Positions 9,702-20,830 of a DNA stretch of 21,781 bases are shown piece by piece (position 1 is the first letter of the stretch; every line of letters starts with the position of its first letter). Source of the stretch: a bacterium (GTDB lineage Bacteria; Methylomirabilota; Methylomirabilia; CAVQYV01); contig JAZDMQ010000130.1 in assembly GCA_043800755.1 (NCBI GenBank), forward strand, positions 1-21,781, in the 5' to 3' direction. The notes beneath the pieces were generated by a model. It was not told the DNA's origin. It did not search any database and saw nothing but the letters and a program-made list of their open reading frames with translations. Position numbers and translations under genes: made by a program.

Positions 9702-10979
9702 TTACGGCACCATCCAATAGGCCAGGAAGGCGTTGACGGCCACCATCAGCCATCCCCAGGGAAGGGCTGTTTGGAGGAACTGGCGGTGGGTGACCTTGGT
9801 GTAGCCGATGGTCCATAAGGTCCAGGAGTTGGTGGGGTCCTGGCTTCCCTGGAGGCAAAGGGCCCCCCGCCAGACGCAGTATAAATAGATGGGCGAGAGG
9901 GCCTTCGCATTCAGAAACATGGCAAGCAGAGCAGCCCCGGTCCCCACCGCAGCGAACGGTCCCCGATAAATCGCCAGCGGCGCCAGGGCGGCGAAGAAGA
10001 GGGCGGCGGCCAGGCGAGTATGGGGGAGGAGAGGACCGAAGACCGGGTTGAGGACCTTTTGCACGGCAGGGAGCTGGCCGCAGATGATGAGCATGCCGCA
10101 GATGATCCACAAGGCGGCGATGGTGGCGATGTCGGGGAAGGCATCGTAGAAGGTCTTGTGGAAGAGATCCACGCTTTGCCGGAAGCTCCTCTTGTGAAAT
10201 TGGGTGGTGAGGAGGGCATAGAGGATGCCTGAGAGGAAGGCGGGGATCATGGTCCACTTGCAGGCGATGACCAGGAGGACGGGGACGGCCGGGGCCAGAT
10301 AGGCGTACCAGGCTATTTGGGGACGGGAGGGAGGAGAGATCGTGACGGCGGAGTATTTGCGGGTTCCTTTCAGCTGGAGGTGGAAGAAGGACATGGCGCA
10401 GGCGCAGAGGAGGTAGACGAAAAAGCCGGTGAAGTAGAACTTGAGGTAGGGCATCTCGTAGAGGATGCCGGGGAACATGGGCTTGAAGATGTTGAACTCC
10501 ACCAAGTTGACGTAGTTGCCGGCCCCGATGGCCATGGTGAAGGCGGGGGCGGCGACATAGGGGGGGATACCCATGGACATCATGATGGGGAGGGCGATCA
10601 CGCCTAAGGCGATGGCGGCCCCTACGCCGTAGAGGGAGGTGAAGAGGAGGCCGGTGACTAAAGAGACGACGATGGCGACGATGACGGGACGATCGCCCGC
10701 CAGTTCGATGGCGGAGCGGATGATGTTCTCGGCGATGCCGGTCTGGACTAACGTCTGGCCGAACCAGGCCCCAAAGACGATGATGACGATGGCATTGGCA
10801 TAGGCGGTCCCTCCCTTGTCGAGGACCTGGGTCAGGATCTCCCGGAAGGGGACCTTGGCCAAGAGGGCCCAGAGGATGGCCAAGAGCATCAGGGAGATGA
10901 TGGGGCTTTCGCCCTTGACGATGAAGATGACGACGCCGACATAGACCAGGAGCATCAAGAGGCCGAGGAAGAGGTCCAT
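9702..10979 (-). CDS. Ion-transporter (IT) superfamily permease, citrate/gluconate transporter-like (425 aa)
   Basis: Start ATG 10979 (AAAGGA RBS). About 11-12 hydrophobic segments. The motif IIVFGAWFGQTLVQTGIAENIIR is typical of the CitMHS/GntP/DctM-type IT superfamily. Substrate unknown. Confidence 0.85.
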   Translation of the reverse strand: MDLFLGLLMLLVYVGVVIFIVKGESPIISLMLLAILWALLAKVPFREILTQVLDKGGTAYANAIVIIVFGAWFGQTLVQTGIAENIIRSAIELAGDRPVIVAIVVSLVTGLLFTSLYGVGAAIALGVIALPIMMSMGIPPYVAAPAFTMAIGAGNYVNLVEFNIFKPMFPGILYEMPYLKFYFTGFFVYLLCACAMSFFHLQLKGTRKYSAVTISPPSRPQIAWYAYLAPAVPVLLVIACKWTMIPAFLSGILYALLTTQFHKRSFRQSVDLFHKTFYDAFPDIATIAALWIICGMLIICGQLPAVQKVLNPVFGPLLPHTRLAAALFFAALAPLAIYRGPFAAVGTGAALLAMFLNAKALSPIYLYCVWRGALCLQGSQDPTNSWTLWTIGYTKVTHRQFLQTALPWGWLMVAVNAFLAYWMVP

Positions 10980-11168
10980 GGGGTGTTCCTTTCGTGAGAA
11001 CTGCTGGCGCAGGGGATCTGCCGGGTACAAAGCATGGCCGAAACCCGAACCGGCCCCGCAAATTGGATGGCCCCAGGGTATCGTTCGCAACCGTTCATCG
11101 GTTTTTCCTCACCCGGGAAGGAAATAGAGGACCGGAAATCAAGACTGGGCAGAAAGTCTGACTTAGCT

Positions 11169-11320: not shown

Positions 11321-12448
11321 ATGAGAGCAAGCCACGGAGGGGATTACCCCCTTCTTTTCACTCCGGCGCGAATCGCCGGGCTCGATCTTCCCAACCGCCT
11401 GGTCATGGCCCCCACGGCGATCAACTTCGCCAACCCGGATGGGACGCCCTCGGATCGGCAGATCGAATACTATCGAATGCGGGCAGAGGGCGGGGTAGGC
11501 CTGATCATCGTGGAGGCTGCCTTCGTCCGGGCCGATGGGCGATCCTTCTCTCACAGCCTGGGACTGGATCAGGACTCCCAGATCCCTGAGTTTCGCAGGC
11601 TGGCCCAGGCCATTCAGGCGGCAGGGGCGAAGGCAGGGATTCAACTGGTGCACGGCGGGCGCCGGGCCAACCCGCAGATCATCGGCGGCCAGCCCCTCGG
11701 CCCCTCTCCGATCCCCTGTCCCCTGCGTCAGGTCGTCCCCCGGGAGTTGAGGGAGGAGGAGGTTCCGGGGCTGTCTCAGGCCTTCGTGGCCGCAGCGGAG
11801 CGGGCCCAGGAGGCTGGGTTTGACCTCATCTGCCTGCACATGGCCCATGGCACCCTCTTACACCAGTTTCTTACCCCCCTCGCCAATCAGCGGCAGGATC
11901 AATACGGCCGCAATCTGGAGGGGAGGCTGCGTCTTCCTTTGATGATCGTACAAGGCATCCGCGAGCGCCTGGGCCCGGACATCGCCCTTTCCTGCCGCAT
12001 CAGCGCTGAGGATGGCGTGGAGGGAGGATTGAAGCTTTCCGACACCTGTCAGATTGCCAGAGGGTTGAGAGCAGCGGGTGCGGATCTGGTCGATGTCTCC
12101 TTCGGCATCCAGGGATCTACGCCTCTAACTTCCCCCACTCAGGAGGCGCCATTTGGCTGTTTCGTACCTTTCGCCGAGAGAATCCGGCAGGACGCCGGTG
12201 GTCCGGTGATCGCGGTGGGGAAGATCTGGGATCCGGCCCTGGCAGAGGAGATCCTCAAGTCGGGAAGGACGGATCTGATTGCCTTGAGCAGACCGCTGCT
12301 CGCAGATCCGGATCTGCCCCGGAAATGGAAGGAAGGTCAACCGAAGCTGGTTCGGCCCTGCATTGGCGATAACAAGGGCTGTCTGGGCCGCCTCTTTCAG
12401 GACCTGGAGGTCCGCTGCTCCGTCAATCCCTCCCTGGGGCGGGGATGA
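11321..12448 (+). CDS. NADH:flavin oxidoreductase / Old Yellow Enzyme family, copy 1 (375 aa)
   Basis: AAGGAGG RBS. Motifs LPNRLVMAP, GGVGLIIVE, GIQLVHGGR, HMAHGT, NQRQDQYG, DLIALSRPLLADPDLP and the tail CIGDNKGC-x11-CSVNP. Confidence 0.93.
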   Translation: MRASHGGDYPLLFTPARIAGLDLPNRLVMAPTAINFANPDGTPSDRQIEYYRMRAEGGVGLIIVEAAFVRADGRSFSHSLGLDQDSQIPEFRRLAQAIQAAGAKAGIQLVHGGRRANPQIIGGQPLGPSPIPCPLRQVVPRELREEEVPGLSQAFVAAAERAQEAGFDLICLHMAHGTLLHQFLTPLANQRQDQYGRNLEGRLRLPLMIVQGIRERLGPDIALSCRISAEDGVEGGLKLSDTCQIARGLRAAGADLVDVSFGIQGSTPLTSPTQEAPFGCFVPFAERIRQDAGGPVIAVGKIWDPALAEEILKSGRTDLIALSRPLLADPDLPRKWKEGQPKLVRPCIGDNKGCLGRLFQDLEVRCSVNPSLGRG

Positions 12449-12547: not shown

Positions 12548-13789
12548 CTACGTCTGTTCCACCAGGGCGGCGGCAAACTCGGAGCAGGAGAGATGGTGCA
12601 GGTCCGTCTCCCCCTCCGCCTGCCAGCCCCGAACCAGGTCATAGGTGCCCTGGTGCTGGGACAGGGCCTTCTTTAGAGCCGTGTGGATCAGGACCGCGGC
12701 CTGCTTCCACCCCAGGTATTCGAGCATCATGGCGGCGGAGAGGATGAGGGAAGAGGGATTTACCTTGTCCTGGCCGGCGTAGCGGGGCGCGCTGCCATGG
12801 GTGGCCTCGAAGACCGCAATCCAGTCCCCGATATTGGTACCCGGGGCCATGCCCAGGCCGCCCACTGTGGCCGCGGCCGCATCCGAGATGTAGTCGCCGT
12901 TGAGGTTGGGGGTGACGATGAGGTCGTATTCGTCGGTGCGGGTCAGGAGCTGCTGAAACATGTTGTCGGCGATGCGGTCGTTGACCAGGATCTTGCCTCC
13001 GGTGGTTCTCTCGCCGGGCCCGTCCTGCTTTTTCGCAGCCTGGGCCTCGGTGAGGAAGCGGCCTGCAAATTCCGGCTCCTCCAGGACCTCGTAGCCCCAA
13101 CGCATGAAGGCGCCCTCGGTGAACTTCATGATGTTCCCCTTGTGCATGAAGGTGACGGCCCGCCGGCGCTCCTGTAGGGCGTAGCGGAGGGCCTTGCGCA
13201 CATGGCGCTTGGTGCGGGAGGGGCTGATGGGCTTGATGCCGACGGCCGCATCCGGGCTCAGTTGTTCCTCGCTCACGCCCATCTCCCTCAGGAATCCGAT
13301 GATCCGCTTGGCCTCCGGGGACTCTGTCGGATATTCGATGCCTGCGTAGACATCTTCGGTGTTCTCCCGGAAGATCACCAGATCCACCTTCTCCGGGTGC
13401 TTGAGGGGCGAGGCCGACCCATACCAGCGCACCGGCCTCACGCAGGAGTAGAGGTCCAGCACCTGTCTGATGGTCACATTCAGGGAACGAAGGCCGCCGC
13501 CCACGGGGGTGGTAAGGGGTCCCTTGATCCCCACGATGTGCTCCCGAAAGGCCATCAAGGTCTCCAGGGGAAGATACTCGCCCATCTCCTGGTGGGCCTT
13601 TTCCCCGGCCAGAACCTCCTCCCACTCGATCCTTCTCTGGCCGGCGTAGGCCCGCTCCACCGCCGTATCTACTACCTGCCTCATCGCGGGGGTAATGTCG
13701 ACCCCGATCCCATCCCCCTCCACAAAGGGGATGATTGGCCGATCCGGGACCACCATCTCGTCGTTTTCGATCCTAATCTTCTCCGGCAT
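12548..13789 (-). CDS. icd: Isocitrate dehydrogenase, NADP-dependent, homodimeric E. coli type (413 aa)
   Basis: Motifs [77 protein letters not shown] and TYDLVR. GAGGTG RBS. Confidence 0.96.
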
Positions 13790-13884
13790 GTCTCACCTCA
13801 CTGATGCAAATGTCCATCCAGGCCTCATTGAAGTCTCGCAACCGGCGCTCTTCTTCGAGGCTGCATCCTTACGCACTGCGTCCT

Positions 13885-14382
13885 TCAAAGGAGGATATCC
13901 CCGTGCTTCTTGATGTGTTCCACCAATCCCCCATCCTCCAGGATCCTCAGGAGCTGGGGGGTGAGGGGCCGGAACCGGGCCTCCTTGCCGTTGGTGAGGT
14001 CCCTCACCAGGCCCTCGGCCAGGGCCACCTCCAGCTCGTCGCCATCGCCCACAAAGGAGGTATCCACGATGATGGCTGGCAGGCCAATGTTCACCGCATT
14101 GCGGAAGAAGATCCGGGCGAAGGATCTGGCCAATACCGCCGAGACCCCCGCCAGCTTGATGATGGTGGGTGCGTGCTCCCGGGAGGAGCCCAGACCGAAG
14201 TTGTTGCCTGCCACCACGAAGTCGCCGGGCTGCACGCGGGCGGCAAAGTCTCCCCTCACATCCTCCAGCAGGTGCCTGGCCAGCTCGGGCAGGTTGGAGC
14301 GGAGATGGAAATAGCGGCCCGGCGCAATGTGATCGGTGGAGATATCATCTCCGAAGACCCATGCCCTTCCTCTCGGCTTCAT
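13885..14382 (-). CDS. leuD: LeuD/HacB-family small subunit (3-isopropylmalate dehydratase/homoaconitase swivel domain); by context a probable aconitase subunit (165 aa)
   Basis: Motifs GRAWVFGDDISTDHIAPG, VVAGNNFGLGSSREHA and SFARIFFRNAVNIGLP. ATGA overlap with the large subunit. The symbol marks the family, not a proven leucine function. Confidence 0.9.
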   Translation of the reverse strand: MKPRGRAWVFGDDISTDHIAPGRYFHLRSNLPELARHLLEDVRGDFAARVQPGDFVVAGNNFGLGSSREHAPTIIKLAGVSAVLARSFARIFFRNAVNIGLPAIIVDTSFVGDGDELEVALAEGLVRDLTNGKEARFRPLTPQLLRILEDGGLVEHIKKHGDILL

Positions 14383-15635
14383 GGCAAGACCTCCCGGGGA
14401 TCGGTGATGCGGCCCGTGAGCGCGGACGCCGCAGCCACTGCAGGAGAGGAGAGATAGATGAGCCCCTTAGGGTTCCCCATCCGGCCTTCAAAATTGCGGT
14501 TCTGGGTGGAGAGGCAGACCTCGCCGTCCCCCAAAGCCCCCTGGTGTACCCCCACGCAGGGCCCGCAGCCCGGAGGCAACACCAGGGCCCCGGCCTCCAC
14601 CAGGACAGAAAGCAAGCCCTCGGCCATGGCCCGCAGGTAGATCTCCCGGGAGGCTGGGCCGACCAGGAGCCGTACTCCTGGGGCGACCGATTTTCCCCGT
14701 AGGATCTGGGCCGCCACCTGCAGGTCCGAGAGCCTGCCATTGGTGCAGGTCCCAATGAAGACCTGATCTACCTTCACCTCCAAGAGGTCCCTGGCGGGTG
14801 AGGTTTGATCCACCCGGTGCGGCCGGGACACGGTCGGCTCGATGCGGGAGAGGTCGTAATGCAGAGTCCTTTCGTAGGCTGCGTCCGGGTCGGGCTCCAT
14901 CTCCCGGAACTGCTCGGTCCGGCCCCTCTCTGCGAGGTAAGCCCTGGTCTGCTCGTCCGCAGGAAAGATCCCGGCCTTGGCCCCGGCCTCCACTGCCATG
15001 TTGGAGATAGTCAGCCGGGACTCCATGTCCAGGGCCTCCAAGTCCCCTCCGAACTCCAGGACCTGGTAGTCGGCGCCGTCGGCCCCGATCTCCCCGATGA
15101 GGTGCAGGATCAGGTCCTTGGCGAAGACCCCCTTCGCGAGCCGGCCCCGAATCTCTACCCGGATGCTCTCGGGCACACGGAACCAGGTCTTGCCCAAGGC
15201 CATGGCGGCTGCCACATCCGTAGACCCCATGCCCGTGGCAAAGGCCCCGAAGGCTCCGGCGGTGCAGGTGTGGGAATCTGCGCCCACGATGAGCATCCCA
15301 GGGGCTGCGCGCTCCTCTGCCACCAATTGGTGGCAGATGCCCTCGCCCACTTCAGAAACCGCTGCCCCGGCCTTCTCTGAAAACTCCCGCATAAACAGAT
15401 GGTCGTTGGAGAGCTCCCGGCGGGGGCTGGGGGCTGCGTGGTCCAGGAAGAAGATCGTGGTCTCCGGGTGGGCAACCTGGGAAAGCCCGAGATTTGCGAT
15501 CTGCCGCACCGTGAGGGGACCGGTGCCGTCCTGGGCGAAGACCAGGTCCACCCGGGCCACTACCAGGTCGCCGGCCTGCGCCTCCCTCCCGCTCTTCTCC
15601 GAGAGGATCTTCTCGGCGATGGTCTTCCCGCTCAT
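14379..15635 (-). CDS. leuC: LeuC/HacA-family large subunit, [4Fe-4S] hydratase; by context a probable aconitase subunit (418 aa)
   Basis: Start ATG 15635 (MSGKTIAEKIL). Motifs GICHQ, GADSHTCT, ISNMAVEAGAK, FIGTCTNGR, GCGPC and STQNRNFEGRMG. The symbol marks the family only. Confidence 0.92.
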   Translation of the reverse strand: MSGKTIAEKILSEKSGREAQAGDLVVARVDLVFAQDGTGPLTVRQIANLGLSQVAHPETTIFFLDHAAPSPRRELSNDHLFMREFSEKAGAAVSEVGEGICHQLVAEERAAPGMLIVGADSHTCTAGAFGAFATGMGSTDVAAAMALGKTWFRVPESIRVEIRGRLAKGVFAKDLILHLIGEIGADGADYQVLEFGGDLEALDMESRLTISNMAVEAGAKAGIFPADEQTRAYLAERGRTEQFREMEPDPDAAYERTLHYDLSRIEPTVSRPHRVDQTSPARDLLEVKVDQVFIGTCTNGRLSDLQVAAQILRGKSVAPGVRLLVGPASREIYLRAMAEGLLSVLVEAGALVLPPGCGPCVGVHQGALGDGEVCLSTQNRNFEGRMGNPKGLIYLSSPAVAAASALTGRITDPREVLP

Positions 15636-15639
15636 CTCG

Positions 15640-17022
15640 CTATGCCCCCTTGGTCCGGCCTGCATATTGGGCGTAGACCTCGGGCAGGTGTCGCTTCACC
15701 AAGGCCAGCATCTCCTGCTCGGAGAAGGAGGTAACCCGCCCCTCGTCGTATTGTGCGGTGATCTCCTCATAGATCTTCTGGACCCCGGGATCGGACTTGG
15801 AGACCTCCAGGCCGCAGTTCTCCATGATCCAGCGGGCTATCCCCGCCACCCCGGATTTGTCGGTAATAGCCACCTTGGGGGGCCTGCCCAGGAGGGTGGC
15901 GGTATCGAAGGGGTTGTAGACCTCCTCGAACTTCAGGAGGCCGTCCGCGTGGATGCCGGCCTGGGTGGTATTGAAGTGCCTGCCCACCAGGGGTTGCCAC
16001 GGCGGGATGGTGAGGCGGCCCTCCTTCTCGATGTATTCTGCAATCTCGGTGACCTTGCGTAGGTTCACCCCGTTGAGGGTGCCCTTCAGGCCCACATAGT
16101 GGATCAGGGCCCCGGTTAAGGGGCAGTTGCCCGTGCGCTCGCCGATGCCCAGGATGGTGGAGTTAGCGTACATCGCCCCGTAGACCCAGGCGGCCACGGT
16201 GTTGGCGGTGACCAGGTGGAAGTCGTTGTGACTGTGGATCTCCAGGCGGTCTGAGGGGATGCCCGCATAGGCCATAAGGTAATAGACGATCTTGGGGATG
16301 GAGCGGGGCAGCGCGGCATGAGGCCAGGGAAGCCCGAAGCCCAGGGTATCGCAGAGCCTGATCTTGATGAAGAGGCCGGACTCTTTGGAGAACTCCATGA
16401 GCGTCTGGGCGAAGGGCACCACCGCCCCCCAGAAGTCGGCCCGGGTGATGTCCTCGAAGTGACAGCGGATGGCCTTCAGGCCGGCATCCGCGGCCGACTT
16501 GACCACCTCCATGTATTTGTCAATAGCGTCCCTGCGCGAGGAGAGTCCCATCTTTTTGAAGATGTGGTAGTCGGAGATGGAGGTGAGGATGCCCGTCTCC
16601 TTGAGCCCCATCTCCTTCACCAGTTGAAAATCCTTGGGGTGCGCCCGGATCCAGCCCGTCACCTCCGGATAGGCAAAACCGAGGCCCTGGACCCTCTCCA
16701 CCGCCTCCCGGTCCTTCTTGGTGTAGAGGAAGAACTCGGACTGTCGAATGACGCCGTTCGGCCCGCCCAGCTCGTGGAGGAGGGTGAAGAGGTCCACGAT
16801 CTGCTGGACCGAATAGGGCGGCCTGGCCTGCTGGCCATCCCGGAAGGTGGTGTCGGTCACATAGATCTCCGCCGGCATGCAGGGTGGGACCGAGACCCCC
16901 TCAAAGGTGATGTAAGGGGGTTCGACGAAGGGAAAATACTCCCTCATCAAATTGGCTTCTCCGGGCTCCACCAGGGGAAATTTGGATACAGGTGGATGTA
17001 GAAAGTTCTCCCACTTCCTCAT
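15640..17022 (-). CDS. rcs: Re-citrate synthase (DRE-TIM metallolyase, isopropylmalate/homocitrate synthase superfamily) (460 aa)
   Basis: DTTFRDGQQARPPY, LGGPNGVIRQSEFFLY, PEVTGWIRA, RCHFEDITRAD, KIRLCDTLG, HSHNDF, GERTGN and AGIHADG match what I recall of Clostridium kluyveri/Syntrophus aciditrophicus Re-citrate synthases. No LeuA regulatory domain. GAGGAGG RBS. Confidence 0.85.
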   Translation of the reverse strand: MRKWENFLHPPVSKFPLVEPGEANLMREYFPFVEPPYITFEGVSVPPCMPAEIYVTDTTFRDGQQARPPYSVQQIVDLFTLLHELGGPNGVIRQSEFFLYTKKDREAVERVQGLGFAYPEVTGWIRAHPKDFQLVKEMGLKETGILTSISDYHIFKKMGLSSRRDAIDKYMEVVKSAADAGLKAIRCHFEDITRADFWGAVVPFAQTLMEFSKESGLFIKIRLCDTLGFGLPWPHAALPRSIPKIVYYLMAYAGIPSDRLEIHSHNDFHLVTANTVAAWVYGAMYANSTILGIGERTGNCPLTGALIHYVGLKGTLNGVNLRKVTEIAEYIEKEGRLTIPPWQPLVGRHFNTTQAGIHADGLLKFEEVYNPFDTATLLGRPPKVAITDKSGVAGIARWIMENCGLEVSKSDPGVQKIYEEITAQYDEGRVTSFSEQEMLALVKRHLPEVYAQYAGRTKGA

Positions 17023-17086
17023 GGCGCAAGACCTCCTCTCGGTTCCTTCCCGCTTTCTTGTTTCAGGAGAATGTTTAAATTTTCCC

Positions 17087-17115
17087 TTTATACCAGATCG
17101 AGTGATTCATCTCAA
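17087..17115 (-). promoter_or_regulatory. Sigma70 promoter (extended -10) of the rcs-leuC-leuD-icd operon
   Basis: TTGAGA (17115-17110), 17 nt ending in TGG, TATAAA (17092-17087). Confidence 0.6.
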
Positions 17116-17240: not shown

Positions 17241-18368
17241 ATGGCGAAAGATGATGTTGGGGACTACCCGCTTTTCTTCGGTCCGGCAGAGATTGCCGGA
17301 CTGAAGCTCCGCAATCGGCTGGTGATGGCCCCCACGACGGTGAACCTCGGCAATCCGAACGGGACGCCCTCGGACCACCAGATCGAATTCTACCGGATGC
17401 GGGCTGAGGGAGGAATCGGCCTGATCATCGTGGAGGCAACCCTCGTCCGGGCCGACGGCCGCATGTTCGCGGCCAATTTGAGCCTCGACCAGGACAGCCA
17501 GATCCCACGGTTTCGACTCCTCTCCCGAGCGATCAAGGAGGCAGGTGCCAGGGCCGGGATTCAACTGGCCCACGCAGGACGTCGGGCCGACCCAACCCTC
17601 ACCGGAAGCCAGCCCATTGGCCCCTCGCCCATCCCCGATCCTCTCCGTCAGATAGTCCCGCGGGAGCTGAGAGAAGAGGAGCTCCCTGGGCTTGCCCAGG
17701 ATTTTGTGGCCGCGGCTGAGCGGGCCCGGGAAGCCGGCTTCGACCTCGTCTCCCTCCATATGGCGCACGGCTATCTTCTGCATCAATTCCTTACCCCCCT
17801 GGCCAACCAGCGCCAGGACCAGTACGGGAGAGATCTGCAGGGCCGGCTTCGCCTTCCCCTGGAGGTGCTCAGAGGAGTACGGGCCCGCCTCGGGCCAGAG
17901 ATGGTCATTTCCTGTCGCCTCAGCGCTGAGGACGGGGTAGAAGGAGGTCTGAGGATCTCCGACACCTGCCAGATTGCCAAGAGGCTGAAAGATGCGGGTG
18001 CGGACCTCCTGGACGTCTCCTTTGGCTTTCCCGGCTCGACGCCGCTCACCTCGCCCACCCAGGATTTTCCGGCAGCCTGTTTCGTACCCTTTGCGGAAAA
18101 GATCCGGGAGGCTGCGGGCCCCCCGGTCATGGCCGTGGGGAAGATCTGGGACCCGGAATTGGCCGAAGAGATCCTCAGGTCCGGGAAGGCCGATCTGATT
18201 GCCCTCAGCAGACCCCTGCTGGCGGATCCCGACCTGCCCCGAAAGTGGCAGGATGGCCGGCTCGGTGAGGTTCGGCCTTGCATCGCCGGCAACAAGGGAT
18301 GTCTCGGGCGCCTCCATCAGAACCTGGAGGTCCGTTGCTCGGTTAACCCCTCCCTGGGCCGCGTATGA
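17241..18368 (+). CDS. NADH:flavin oxidoreductase / Old Yellow Enzyme family, copy 2 (375 aa)
   Basis: AAGGAG RBS. Collinear with copy 1. Motifs HMAHGYLLHQFL and the tail CIAGNKGC-x11-CSVNP. Confidence 0.94.
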   Translation: MAKDDVGDYPLFFGPAEIAGLKLRNRLVMAPTTVNLGNPNGTPSDHQIEFYRMRAEGGIGLIIVEATLVRADGRMFAANLSLDQDSQIPRFRLLSRAIKEAGARAGIQLAHAGRRADPTLTGSQPIGPSPIPDPLRQIVPRELREEELPGLAQDFVAAAERAREAGFDLVSLHMAHGYLLHQFLTPLANQRQDQYGRDLQGRLRLPLEVLRGVRARLGPEMVISCRLSAEDGVEGGLRISDTCQIAKRLKDAGADLLDVSFGFPGSTPLTSPTQDFPAACFVPFAEKIREAAGPPVMAVGKIWDPELAEEILRSGKADLIALSRPLLADPDLPRKWQDGRLGEVRPCIAGNKGCLGRLHQNLEVRCSVNPSLGRV

Positions 18369-19636
18369 TCCCTCCTGCTCCCTCCCTCAATCATCCCCCG
18401 ACTCAGGGGGCTCCTGCAGGCCCAGGGACCGGGGGCACCGGGGCCGGGCAGTTATCCCTGCGGGGCCACTACGGATGGGTGGTTGTCCTCCTGGGGATCC
18501 TCAATGTGCTGGGGAGCATTGGCTTCGCCCGTTTCGGTTACCCCCTGATCCTGCCCAGCATGAAGGAGAGCCTGGATCTGACCCATACCCAGATGGGGCT
18601 CCTGGGGTCGGGGAATTTCGTGGGCTACCTCACGGCCTCGCTGCTGGGTGGCTATTGGGCGAGCAAATACGGTCCCAAGCGGGTGATTCTCCTCTCCCTG
18701 GCCCTGGTGGGGATCTGTATGATCCTGACCGGCCTCTCGGACAGCTTCCTCTTTGCGCTGGGGATGCGGTTTCTGACCGGACTGGGAAGCGGCGGCTCCT
18801 ACATCCCCATGATCGGGCTCTGCGTGGGGCGGTTCCCGCCCCAACAGCGGGGAGTCGCCTCGGGCCTGATGATCAGCGGCAGCGGCTTTGGCCTCATCCT
18901 CACCGGGTGGATCATCCCTGCCATCATCACCGCTTACGGCGGAGAGGGTTGGAGGATCTGTTGGCAGCTCCTCGGCCTCTGCATCTTCCTCTTCTGGGGA
19001 TTGACCCTCTTCCTACTGCGAGAGCCTCCCCAGGAGAGGTCCTCCTCCGCCTCCGCCCCCCCGCCCTGGTCCCAGGTCTATAAGAACCGCACCCTGTGGC
19101 GCATGGCCTTCATCTATTTTACCTCTGGCTTCTCCCTCTCCATGTACATGACCTTCTTCGGGGCCCATACTGCCCGGGCCGGGCACCTCTCTCCGGCGGT
19201 CATCGGTCAGATCTGGTCCCTCCTTGGCGGCCTGAGCATCTTTTCTGGCCTGGCCTGGGGATGGGTCTCGGATCGGTTGGGCCGGAGGTTCGCCCTGGTC
19301 GCGGTCTTCGCCCTCCACGGGATCTCCTTTTTCATCTTCTCTCTGGCGCGCCCGGTCTGGTCCTTTTATCTCTCGGCCGCGGTATTGGGAACAGCGGCCT
19401 GGGCTATCGCCTCGATCCTGTCCGCGGCGGTCGCCGATTATGTGGGCCCCAGATTGGCCTCGGCCGCCATCGGCTTCATCACCGTCGTCTTCGGGATCGG
19501 GCAGGTCATCTCCCCCTTCGTGGCAGGGCAGATCGCGGATCACACCGGCTCTTTCTCTTCCGCCTTTGCCCTGGCAGCTGGTGTGGTATTCATCGGCCTG
19601 CTGGGTTGCCTGCGGCTGGGGACGAGATGCACCTGA
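18365..19636 (+). CDS. MFS transporter, YbfB/YjiJ-like (423 aa)
   Basis: About 12 hydrophobic segments. Motifs GFARFGYPLILPSM, GGYWASKYGPKRV and WGWVSDRLGRR (MFS motif A). ATGA overlap with OYE copy 2. Confidence 0.92.
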   Translation: MIPPAPSLNHPPTQGAPAGPGTGGTGAGQLSLRGHYGWVVVLLGILNVLGSIGFARFGYPLILPSMKESLDLTHTQMGLLGSGNFVGYLTASLLGGYWASKYGPKRVILLSLALVGICMILTGLSDSFLFALGMRFLTGLGSGGSYIPMIGLCVGRFPPQQRGVASGLMISGSGFGLILTGWIIPAIITAYGGEGWRICWQLLGLCIFLFWGLTLFLLREPPQERSSSASAPPPWSQVYKNRTLWRMAFIYFTSGFSLSMYMTFFGAHTARAGHLSPAVIGQIWSLLGGLSIFSGLAWGWVSDRLGRRFALVAVFALHGISFFIFSLARPVWSFYLSAAVLGTAAWAIASILSAAVADYVGPRLASAAIGFITVVFGIGQVISPFVAGQIADHTGSFSSAFALAAGVVFIGLLGCLRLGTRCT

Positions 19637-19741: not shown

Positions 19742-20830
19742 ATGTCCCAGCTCTTTGCCCCCATCACCATCAACTCCCTGACCCTCGCCAATCGCTTCGT
19801 TCGCTCCGCCACCGCCGAACGGATGGCCGGGGCGGACGGCGGCCTGCTGCCGGAGGCGGCCCGGCTCTACGAGGGCCTGGCCCAGGGAGGGGTCGGCCTG
19901 ATCGTCACCGGCCATGCCTATGTGGCCGCAGAGGGCATTGCCCATCGCTGGATGACGGGGATCCACGAGGACTCCCTCTTGCCCGGCCTGAGGGCGGCCA
20001 CCGAGGCAGTCCATCGCGTCGGGGGTAAGATTGCCATCCAGATCAATCATTCGGGCGGGATGAAGGAGGTCAACCTGGATCAGGGCCCTCCCCTGGCCCC
20101 CTCGGCCTTGCCCTGTGAGCAGACCGGCCATCGGGCCCAGGAGCTGTCCGAGGGGCAGATCGAGCAGATCATCGAGCAATTTGGCCAGGCGGCCCGGCGG
20201 GCCAAATTGGCCAACTTCGATGCCATCCAGATCCATGGGGCGCACGGATATCTGGCCAATCAGTTCCTCTCTCCCCTCACCAATCAGCGGAGGGATCGCT
20301 GGGGCGGCACCCTGGGGAATCGCATGCGCTTCTTGCTCTGCCTCTATCGGCGGGTGCGGGAGGAGGTGGGAATGAGCTATCCCCTCCTTTGCAAGCTGGC
20401 CATCTCCGATTTCAAGGAGGGGGGATTGACAGTCGAGGAGGGCCTGGAGGTGGCGGCTGGGCTGGCTGCGGAGGGCCTCGATGCCCTGGAGATCAGCGGC
20501 GGGCTGGCCGGAAGCCGCTATGTGAAGGGAAGGACCGATCTGGAGTGGATGAAGGAGGAAGGCTTCTTCCGTCCTTATACCCGGAGGGTGAAGGAGGAGG
20601 TGAGGATCCCGGTGATCTTAGTGGGGATGCTACGGCACTTGGAGTTCATGGAACGCATGGTGGCAGAGGGCTACGCAGACCTGGTCGCCCTGTGCCGTCC
20701 CTTCATCCGGGAGCCGGACCTGGTCGATCGCCTGCGAGAGGGGATTGCCCCAGCCTCTACCTGCAGATCCTGCAATCAATGCACCGGCCCCTCCCGCAGC
20801 GAGCCCATCTCCTGCCGGATTGCACACTGA
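19742..20830 (+). CDS. NADH:flavin oxidoreductase / OYE family, third and more distant paralog with a C-terminal Cys cluster (362 aa)
   Basis: AAGGAGG RBS. Motifs NRFVRSAT, GGVGLIVTG, QIHGAHGYL, NQRRDRWGG, CRPFIREPDL and CRSCNQC-x10-C. Confidence 0.93.
   Translation: MSQLFAPITINSLTLANRFVRSATAERMAGADGGLLPEAARLYEGLAQGGVGLIVTGHAYVAAEGIAHRWMTGIHEDSLLPGLRAATEAVHRVGGKIAIQINHSGGMKEVNLDQGPPLAPSALPCEQTGHRAQELSEGQIEQIIEQFGQAARRAKLANFDAIQIHGAHGYLANQFLSPLTNQRRDRWGGTLGNRMRFLLCLYRRVREEVGMSYPLLCKLAISDFKEGGLTVEEGLEVAAGLAAEGLDALEISGGLAGSRYVKGRTDLEWMKEEGFFRPYTRRVKEEVRIPVILVGMLRHLEFMERMVAEGYADLVALCRPFIREPDLVDRLREGIAPASTCRSCNQCTGPSRSEPISCRIAH

Follow-up and report, generated by a model that had tools for sequence, protein, structure and literature searches.

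A candidate LeuCD-type two-subunit aconitase encoded between a Re-citrate-synthase-type gene and an isocitrate dehydrogenase gene in a Methylomirabilota genome

Aconitase is, in textbook terms, a single-chain enzyme. A 2021 review of the aconitase superfamily (Watanabe et al., PMC8184944) ascribes aconitase activity only to AcnA, AcnB, mAcn, and cAcn/IRP, and lists two-subunit forms within the homoaconitase (HACN), isopropylmalate isomerase (IPMI), and AcnX classes, with no heterodimeric aconitase class. Our literature search returned no description of a heterodimeric, two-subunit, or split aconitase, although subscription papers and supplements may say more on Dehalococcoides. Here, we examine a 21,781-nucleotide stretch of DNA (the window; GenBank assembly GCA_043800755.1, contig JAZDMQ010000130.1), which is contig C36 of a 2.43-Mb Methylomirabilota assembly in 166 contigs (genome G000; 100% complete by marker genes, 0.06% contaminated). 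It carries four co-oriented minus-strand genes, spanning 17022-12548: a Re-citrate-synthase-type gene (RCS), genes for the large and small subunits of a LeuCD-type hydro-lyase (LC and LD), and an isocitrate dehydrogenase gene (IDH). There is a good probability that LC and LD form a heterodimeric aconitase of LeuCD architecture, for which an L-R-S-N-L loop in the small subunit would be diagnostic. The four genes would then form one unit leading from oxaloacetate and acetyl-CoA to 2-oxoglutarate, the oxidative branch of the tricarboxylic acid (TCA) cycle. The first gene product would make citrate, as a Re-citrate synthase; LC and LD would assemble into a [4Fe-4S] hydro-lyase of the two-subunit LeuCD/HacAB architecture and isomerize citrate to isocitrate via cis-aconitate; and the NADP-dependent IDH would yield 2-oxoglutarate, usable by a glutamate-synthase-type gene elsewhere in the genome. 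A preliminary description of this DNA had proposed the pair as a dedicated citrate/isocitrate isomerase, and genome content, phylogeny, and gene neighborhoods support that reading, with substrate and specificity being what we infer from sequence.

A close counterpart is the clostridial-type gene cluster in which Re-citrate synthase is joined by aconitase and IDH, which Li et al. reportedly described in 2007. It uses the same synthase family, since the leading genes of RCS / fused aconitase / IDH clusters in Firmicutes metagenome-assembled genomes (MAGs) share 51-56% identity with RCS, and it follows the same pathway logic and gene order as the window, with the small-domain loop RSN common to its aconitase and LD. 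However, the clostridial-type aconitase is one polypeptide of ~640 aa, closer to mitochondrial aconitase, whereas the window encodes two polypeptides of the LeuC/HacA radiation; likewise, its IDH is ~330 aa long, compared with the 413-aa NADP type here. The preliminary description had spoken of a conventional aconitase beside clostridial Re-citrate synthase, and this needs correction, as the enzyme in the Firmicutes loci is the ~640-aa fused form and not AcnA or AcnB.

Another parallel is found in Dehalococcoides mccartyi, in which DET0448 and DET0449, beside the gene for its isocitrate dehydrogenase DmIDH (DET0450), are what we take to be LeuCD-type genes, and the Re-citrate synthase gene is presumably not adjacent to this operon. 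DmIDH has been assayed and is an isocitrate dehydrogenase, and its gene is said to share an operon with "other putative TCA-cycle genes" that is distinct from the leu operon (PMC4720418). Read this way, the operon matches the LC-LD-IDH order (with an IDH of ~360 aa) of most of our metagenome relatives. Two clades of Re-citrate synthase are recognized, and the D. mccartyi enzyme falls in the clade other than that of the window (PMC12016533). Structures of the two-subunit architecture are available for HacAB and LeuCD of Methanocaldococcus jannaschii (PDB 4kp2/2pkp and 4kp1/3vba), which belong to the same family as LC/LD (381-396 bits). Here, the window LD loop YFHLRSN is one residue longer than YLRTT of HacB or YLVYT of LeuD, and the genomic context is citrate synthase and IDH, rather than coenzyme B or leucine genes. 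At the broadest level, LC/LD belong to the aconitase superfamily reviewed in 2021 (PMC8184944), with the same chemistry, and they have the GTCTNG, GCGPC, and GSSRE motifs.

The idea of a LeuCD/HacA-type stand-in for aconitase is not wholly new; the family is unassayed and mislabeled. "Homoaconitate hydratase" genes have been named as candidates for the missing aconitase of Ferroglobus placidus (PMC3236036). That proposal expresses the same idea in one sentence, from 40% similarity to Sulfolobus aconitase, without context, motif, or assay. The caution about novelty in the preliminary description was thus well placed, since annotation-level suggestions are in print for Dehalococcoides (PMC4720418) and for Ferroglobus (PMC3236036). 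A Chloroflexi genome has been reported to have Re-citrate synthase but a "missing aconitate hydratase" (PMC3971608). The missing archaeal or anaerobe aconitase was once answered by AcnX, which was later given other functions (PMC5144071, PMC8184944). Thermodesulfatator indicus was considered as a parallel case and set aside, with a single-gene aconitase in its supplement.

The gene content of the host genome carries much of the argument. Matches to the Aconitase family (PF00330) in G000 are confined to the window pair and to contig C132, where the order is ilvC..leuA-leuC-leuD-leuB-asd and all genes score above their NCBIfam equivalog cut-offs (LeuC 692, LeuD 257). Profile searches of the assembly turned up neither AcnA nor AcnB nor a fused aconitase, and Si-citrate synthase (PF00285) had no match. 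The preliminary description had envisaged a genome without acnA and acnB and with a separate leuCD, and this is what we see. Genes of the Iso_dh family in G000 are leuB, a tartrate-dehydrogenase-like gene, and the window IDH. Since no other aconitase is present and the leucine genes are separate, LC/LD are the sole candidate for the step between the citrate synthase candidate and IDH. The diaminopimelate (DAP) route to lysine is represented by dapB, dapL, and asd, so that no homoaconitase is needed for lysine. 2-Oxoglutarate also has consumers, because glutamate-synthase (GOGAT)-type and succinyl-CoA-synthetase-type genes exist in G000. Other LeuA-family genes in the genome are cimA (on contig C134) and a synthase gene of ~408 aa on contig C43.

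The two enzymes on either side of the proposed aconitase step are consistent with this reading. RCS contains the HMGL-like domain of the LeuA superfamily (PF00682, 99.8 bits) and lies outside all LeuA, CimA, and NifV equivalogs (best NCBIfam score 156 bits against a cut-off of 463). Proteins called "citrate (Re)-synthase" at JGI, where the names are automatic annotation, share 57-61% identity with it, and we propose that RCS belongs to the Re-citrate synthases of the Clostridium kluyveri / Syntrophus type. IDH exceeds the cut-offs of the NADP-IDH equivalog TIGR00183 (583.4, cut-off 567.3) and of NF005425 (549.6, cut-off 490). It carries GLRSLN at residues 99-104, so the RSLN reported in the preliminary description is indeed present, starting at residue 101; we take its Ser and Asn to be the substrate-motif residues. 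As a side observation on the synthase family, many RCS homologs are fusions of ~600 aa with a C-terminal dCache / PDC-sensor domain (L040:1957-3750; P0034-P0120), and their source names, "histone-lysine N-methyltransferase" or "triose-phosphate isomerase," look like misannotations. The characterized Syntrophus Re-citrate synthase, reportedly a 73-kDa protein, would fit this dCache-fused form.

LC and LD themselves resemble the LeuC/HacA and LeuD/HacB families without reaching the cut-off of any specific member. They pass subfamily-level models only (hacA_fam and IPMI_arch for LC, and LEUD_arch). LC falls under the IPMI equivalog LEU2 (476 against 610.65), the methanogen homoaconitase model HacA_Meth (450 against 550), the fused-aconitase model PRK07229 (390 against 612), and AcnA (111 against 905), and LD falls under the IPMI equivalog leud (168 against 245.85), HacB2 (184 against 230), and HacB (137 against 230). 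The pair stays far below the cut-offs of the known aconitase family models, whether for AcnA/IRP, AcnB, mAcn, or the fused enzyme (PRK07229/TIGR01342). Identity to the leucine-pathway proteins of the same genome is 48% for LC against LeuC and 46% for LD against LeuD, and LC is about equidistant from the M. jannaschii structures of IPMI (LeuC, 395.9 bits) and HACN (HacA, 381.5 bits). LC scores 157.5 bits against mitochondrial aconitase; for one of the fused enzymes, the score against pig mitochondrial aconitase is 357 bits. The motifs DSHT, GTCTNG, GCGPC, and NRNFEGR in LC and GSSREH in LD are intact. By analogy with mitochondrial aconitase, GTCTNG and GCGPC would supply the three cluster cysteines and GSSRE the catalytic serine.

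The small-subunit loop sets LD apart from leucine-pathway LeuD. In IPMI and HACN, a flexible loop of the small subunit is reported to set specificity (PMC7308503). In the window LD, this loop is PGRYFHLRSNLPELA, containing YFHLRSN, and it follows an L-R-[S/T]-x-L pattern that is present in all 54 full-length related LDs (47 LRSNL, 5 LRSDL, 1 LRTNL, and 1 LRSRL). The five leu-operon LeuDs have YLN-TSDP or YLV-TSDP instead, while all 17 fused ~640-aa aconitases that we aligned, drawn from RCS-IDH clusters and from relatives in the window's class, have [L/Y/F]RSN[I/V]P at the aligned place. Reference enzymes read YLVYT (M. jannaschii LeuD), YLRTT (M. jannaschii HacB), and YNLTKD (Pyrococcus horikoshii). 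Tricarboxylate specificity would come from this part of the small subunit (...YFHLRSNLPELA), in which the invariant Arg would, by analogy with the equivalent loop Arg of monomeric aconitases, bind the γ-carboxylate of the substrate.

Gene neighborhoods link the same activities repeatedly. Among the 80 metagenome loci closest to LC (53-99% identical), 55 of the 57 that leave at least 600 nt of room have LD after LC, and in 36 of the 44 whose flank reaches at least 1200 nt, an Iso_dh gene lies no more than 1.5 kb beyond LD. Neither leuA nor leuB was seen linked to LC/LD in the surveyed metagenome loci. The dehydrogenases adjoining LD are mostly ~355-365 aa long. We aligned 36 of them, each at least 320 aa and uncut at the contig 3' end, and found G[F/L/I/Y]RS[V/L]N in 34, as in IDH; those of L184 and L217 have IESAN in place of RSxN. 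For the 14 dehydrogenases scanned, the best NCBIfam models are IDH models, with 11 short forms below the cut-offs; the L193 enzyme, with 56% identity to the window IDH, clears the TIGR00183 cut-off, and the L162 enzyme, with 71%, falls marginally short of it (566.4 against 567.3) but passes NF005425. Linkage of RCS to LC within these 80 loci is confined to the nearest kin, L159 (99% identical) and L160 (87%), and L187 has a LeuA-like synthase upstream of LC. Five loci (L184, L209, L210, L217, and L229) have ~1.3-1.7 kb between LC and LD.

A survey of 80 RCS loci from named genomes approaches the question from the other end. Ten of these loci have RCS, then the ~640-aa fused aconitase, and then IDH, which is the clostridial arrangement, and their fused aconitases are 37-40% identical to LC. 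Two have RCS followed by an LC ortholog (53-61% identical), namely L040 from a deltaproteobacterial MAG and L033 from a Nitrospirota MAG. A further 59 are without an aconitase- or IDH-type neighbor in the available flank, many of these loci being short. In both RCS-LC MAGs (G251 and G252), the Aconitase family consists of two LeuC-type loci only, with no other aconitase, and each MAG has a leuC-leuD-leuB cluster plus a separate LD ortholog (64-66% identical) with the LRSNL loop, which in one of the two stands directly before an IDH-type gene. The co-occurrence with synthase and IDH genes that the preliminary description suggested surveying is thus found in the IDH-type gene after LC-LD and in RCS-LC and LD-IDH pairs of two other genomes. 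The four genes are linked pairwise in several permutations across lineages, which is the pattern expected of one pathway.

We placed LC among its relatives with two phylogenies, for which rows were chosen by random sampling within groups (seed 1), leaving aside fragments <395 aa and fused representatives >470 aa. A FastTree analysis of 223 large subunits, with the fused aconitases as the root, gathers every IDH-adjacent LC, together with the window LC and L040, into one 75-row clade (SH-like support 88); the group containing four leu-operon LeuCs and two LEU2-passing representatives splits off several nodes deeper (support 93). A quick IQ-TREE run under LG+G4 used 73 rows and recovered a 36-row LC group (SH-aLRT 87) with an inner 28-row clade holding all IDH-adjacent LCs (88). 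The leu-operon and LEU2-passing LeuCs fall in another 28-row group (support 85), which is the sister of the LC group. Of 70 family representatives compared with NCBIfam models to anchor the tree, 2 scored above the LEU2 cut-off, and HacA_Meth was reached by none at the threshold applied; the trees place LC relative to the leu-operon and LEU2-passing LeuCs. The phylogeny proposed as a check in the preliminary description therefore separates the LC clade from leu-operon and LEU2-type LeuC with moderate support. By its position in the trees, LC/LD forms a lineage within the LeuC/HacA radiation, and the pair is not a fused aconitase that has split in two.

Within the phylum, LC-like genes occur in 7 of 250 other genomes (52-57% identical) and form a tight subclade (support 100 in IQ-TREE) that adjoins the IDH-linked clade in the same tree. 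The LD loop of this sister subclade reads YAHLR[S/D][D/N]LP, and the source names for the cluster are NC10 / Methylomirabilales. G000 is the sole LC carrier outside the sister subclade among the 251 phylum genomes; the genes of G019, G031, and G035, which had been candidates for LC orthologs in the class, turned out to belong to the sister subclade. A fused-type aconitase match is present in 27 of 40 relatives examined (a count that includes G030). The single genome of the same family, G001, has AcnA beside IDH, RCS elsewhere, and no LC. Its leucine-pathway proteins are close to those of G000 (LeuA 87%, LeuC 82%, LeuD 76%, and LeuB 78% identical), whereas RCS and IDH are distant (53% and 57%). 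Because of this difference and the lack of LC in G001, the RCS-LC-LD-IDH set looks exchanged as a block, and acquisition or exchange of the whole operon is probable. The AcnA-type gene of G001 lies ~1 kb upstream of IDH (L239, contig C14, 36000-52000), and an aconitase-IDH linkage is thus retained in that genome with a different type of aconitase.

Several alternative activities for LC/LD have to be weighed against aconitase. If the pair were a homoaconitase of the HacAB/LysTU type in 2-oxoacid elongation, the synthase would be a homocitrate synthase. Such an assignment could draw on LC passing hacA_fam, on the similar scores of M. jannaschii HacA and LeuC (381.5 and 395.9 bits), on the loop Arg that methanogen HacB also has, and on the uncharacterized LeuA-family synthase of C43. 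We nevertheless regard it as very unlikely: the HacA_Meth, HacB, and HacB2 equivalog cut-offs are all missed, the dehydrogenase of the operon passes the NADP-IDH equivalog, 34 of the 36 aligned dehydrogenases next to the relatives have the RSxN of IDH, RCS falls among proteins bearing the name Re-citrate synthase, and lysine genes of the DAP pathway are present. Moreover, a genome deprived of LC/LD in this way would keep citrate synthase and IDH with zero aconitase. More improbable still, in our view, is a second isopropylmalate or citramalate isomerase, for example in a citramalate route to isoleucine, with the proximity of IDH being incidental. The source label of all relatives is "3-isopropylmalate/(R)-2-methylmalate dehydratase," cimA is in the genome, and LC is 48% identical to the LeuC of G000, all of which would suit such an enzyme. 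Yet the LEU2 and leud equivalogs that LC and LD miss are passed by LeuC and LeuD of G000, the loop contains a charged Arg unlike that of 5/5 leu-operon LeuDs, IDH is linked in 36 of 44 loci and leuA or leuB in none, and cimA lies on another contig beside aspartate kinase.

Enzymes of the aconitase superfamily are often promiscuous, and LC/LD might have broad specificity or act on another tricarboxylate (methylcitrate/methylaconitate, or aconitate together with homoaconitate), with aconitase as one activity among others. This reading would accommodate the sister subclade, which coexists with AcnA and LeuC in G031 and G035, and the eight of 44 loci without an IDH neighbor, and there is a precedent in the dual-specificity P. 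horikoshii enzyme cited in PMC7308503. It conflicts with the absence of any other enzyme to supply isocitrate to IDH in G000, G251, and G252, and with an RSN loop that is the same as in fused aconitases, and we consider it unlikely.

The aconitase reading of LC/LD also has points that weigh against it. No assayed enzyme of the LC/LD clade was found in the literature searched, and every functional statement on the pair rests on context and motifs. The loop Arg cannot separate aconitate from homoaconitate, because methanogen homoaconitase HacB carries an Arg at that place (YLRT). In mitochondrial aconitase, the residue binding the γ-carboxylate is Arg580, in ...LKFRGHL..., to which the loop Arg of LD may correspond; sequence searches of solved structures aligned only from chain residue 616 onward, or only up to the TTDHIxPAG motif of IRP1. 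The clade supports (87-88) are moderate and not decisive. Eight of the 44 LC loci have no IDH after LD (L181, L182, L185, L191, L192, L212, L230, and L232), and RCS adjacency is rare: of the 49 loci that reach 1400 nt or more upstream of LC, a single one has RCS there, to which L159, with an RCS cut at the contig start, can be added. The sister-subclade loci of G019, G031, and G035 have neither RCS nor IDH neighbors; G031 and G035 have an AcnA-type gene as well as an E. coli-type LeuC alongside the subclade genes, and G019 has just the E. coli-type LeuC, so that an LC fold with the loop Arg need not mean a sole aconitase. In G000 itself, an acn gene may have gone unassembled, given 166 contigs and a completeness estimated from marker genes only, and the synthase on C43 is a second, uncharacterized member of the LeuA family.

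This C43 synthase is encoded at 24882-26180 (L013:4883-6181, minus strand), beside dapB and LL-DAP aminotransferase genes. Its family is 65-72% identical across proteins labeled Chloroflexi, Bacillota, Thermodesulfobacteriota, Armatimonadetes, and Betaproteobacteria and is named "pyruvate carboxyltransferase / LeuA family." Tested as a possible second Re-citrate synthase, it proved to belong to that conserved ~408-aa group, and it is not close to the synthases adjoining LC in L185 and L187.

The window itself supports the compact organization given in the preliminary description. The 4-nt gap between RCS and LC and the ATGA overlap of LC and LD are both confirmed from the sequence: the RCS stop codon TAG is followed by CGAG and then by the LC ATG at 15635. 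The four co-oriented genes behind one promoter stand as far as the genes are concerned (Table 1), and a promoter-like element is readable upstream of them, with 10 of 12 hexamer positions fitting the consensus by direct reading, but it is absent from the output of our consensus promoter scan. The scan missed it because the second hexamer ends in A, where a T is required. GAGGAGG precedes the RCS ATG, and the promoter/terminator scan called no terminator 3' of IDH. Contigs from RNA libraries cover the operon in three metatranscriptome runs of two studies (X10, X19, and X20). The LD-IDH spacer is bridged by X10 record 12, X19 record 20, and X20 record 26, and the RCS-LC junction by X10 record 15; uncovered stretches of the operon in X19 and X20 carry no information. 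These contigs are not evidence of co-transcription, because they possibly derive from DNA, hold no strand or transcript information, and show the flanking convergent gene at a depth similar to that of the operon. The promoter, and transcription of the four genes as one unit, are inferred from the letters of the DNA. One of the contigs, X10 record 15 (2553 nt), tracks window positions 14734-17098 and continues with 188 letters unlike the window. This divergence lies just upstream of the proposed -10 element, and the promoter region therefore appears to vary between strains.

Table 1. Positions of the features discussed, in window coordinates unless a locus is named
Feature	Positions	Strand	Description
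Promoter-like element	17087..17115	-	TTGAGA 17115-17110, 17-nt spacer, TGgTATAAA ending 17087, extended -10 type
Re-citrate-synthase-type gene RCS	15640..17022	-	460 aa, HMGL-like domain
LC, large subunit of proposed heterodimeric aconitase	14379..15635	-	418 aa, Aconitase domain
LD, small subunit	13885..14382	-	165 aa, Aconitase_C domain, loop PGRYFHLRSNLPELA, GSSREH motif
LD-IDH spacer	13790..13884	-	95 nt
NADP-dependent isocitrate dehydrogenase IDH	12548..13789	-	413 aa, TIGR00183 passed
Sister-subclade LC/LD locus (G035)	L128:5916-7710
Sister-subclade LC/LD locus (G019)	L126:3027-4804
Sister-subclade LC/LD locus (G031)	L127:6519-8222
OYE-family NADH:flavin oxidoreductase, first paralog	11321-12448	+
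OYE-family NADH:flavin oxidoreductase, second paralog	17241-18368	+
MFS transporter gene	18365-19636		after the second OYE paralog
OYE-family NADH:flavin oxidoreductase, third paralog	19742-20830	+
Open reading frame of 1194 aa	7477-11061	-	hydantoinase/oxoprolinase domains confined to the C-terminal 700 aa
Open reading frame in another frame	9702-11090	-	overlaps the 1194-aa frame; weak GntP-permease match

The other open reading frames scanned in the window encode OYE reductases, an MFS transporter, a hydantoinase, an NHL/TPR protein, and a CsgG-like protein, and none is leuA, leuB, a lysine-pathway gene, or AcnA/AcnB, which bears out what the preliminary description had noted. The first two of the three OYE paralogs are 76% identical and flank the operon on both sides; the OYE genes may represent a tandem array into which the operon was inserted. 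Gene calls need care where the 1194-aa frame is overlapped by a frame that matches GntP permease weakly.

Beyond this genome, we put the chances at slightly better than even that LeuCD-type heterodimers with the LRSNL loop are a widespread, biochemically unrecognized family of aconitases that arose within the LeuC/HacA radiation, with an RSN loop convergent with that of the fused aconitases. Such a family, which annotation pipelines call isopropylmalate dehydratase, would fill the "missing aconitase" of many anaerobes and would be mobile with IDH, and sometimes with Re-citrate synthase, having here replaced an ancestral AcnA-based set. Relatives with the loop come from sources labeled Spirochaetota, Nitrospirota, and Deltaproteobacteria, and Dehalococcoidia probably belong to the family as well. 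If our reading of LC/LD is true, this would be a fifth structural solution for a core step of the TCA cycle, and a TCA branch would be built from the LeuA-, LeuCD-, and LeuB-like families of 2-oxoacid elongation, which bears on how these pathways diverged. The L-R-S-N-L loop would then serve as a simple marker for reannotation and for substrate tuning of the fold. Metabolic reconstructions with "no aconitase," such as those of the Chloroflexi genome (PMC3971608) and Ferroglobus, and genomes counted as having two IPMIs would need to be rechecked, and the seemingly "missing" aconitase of many anaerobes may be accounted for by this clade.

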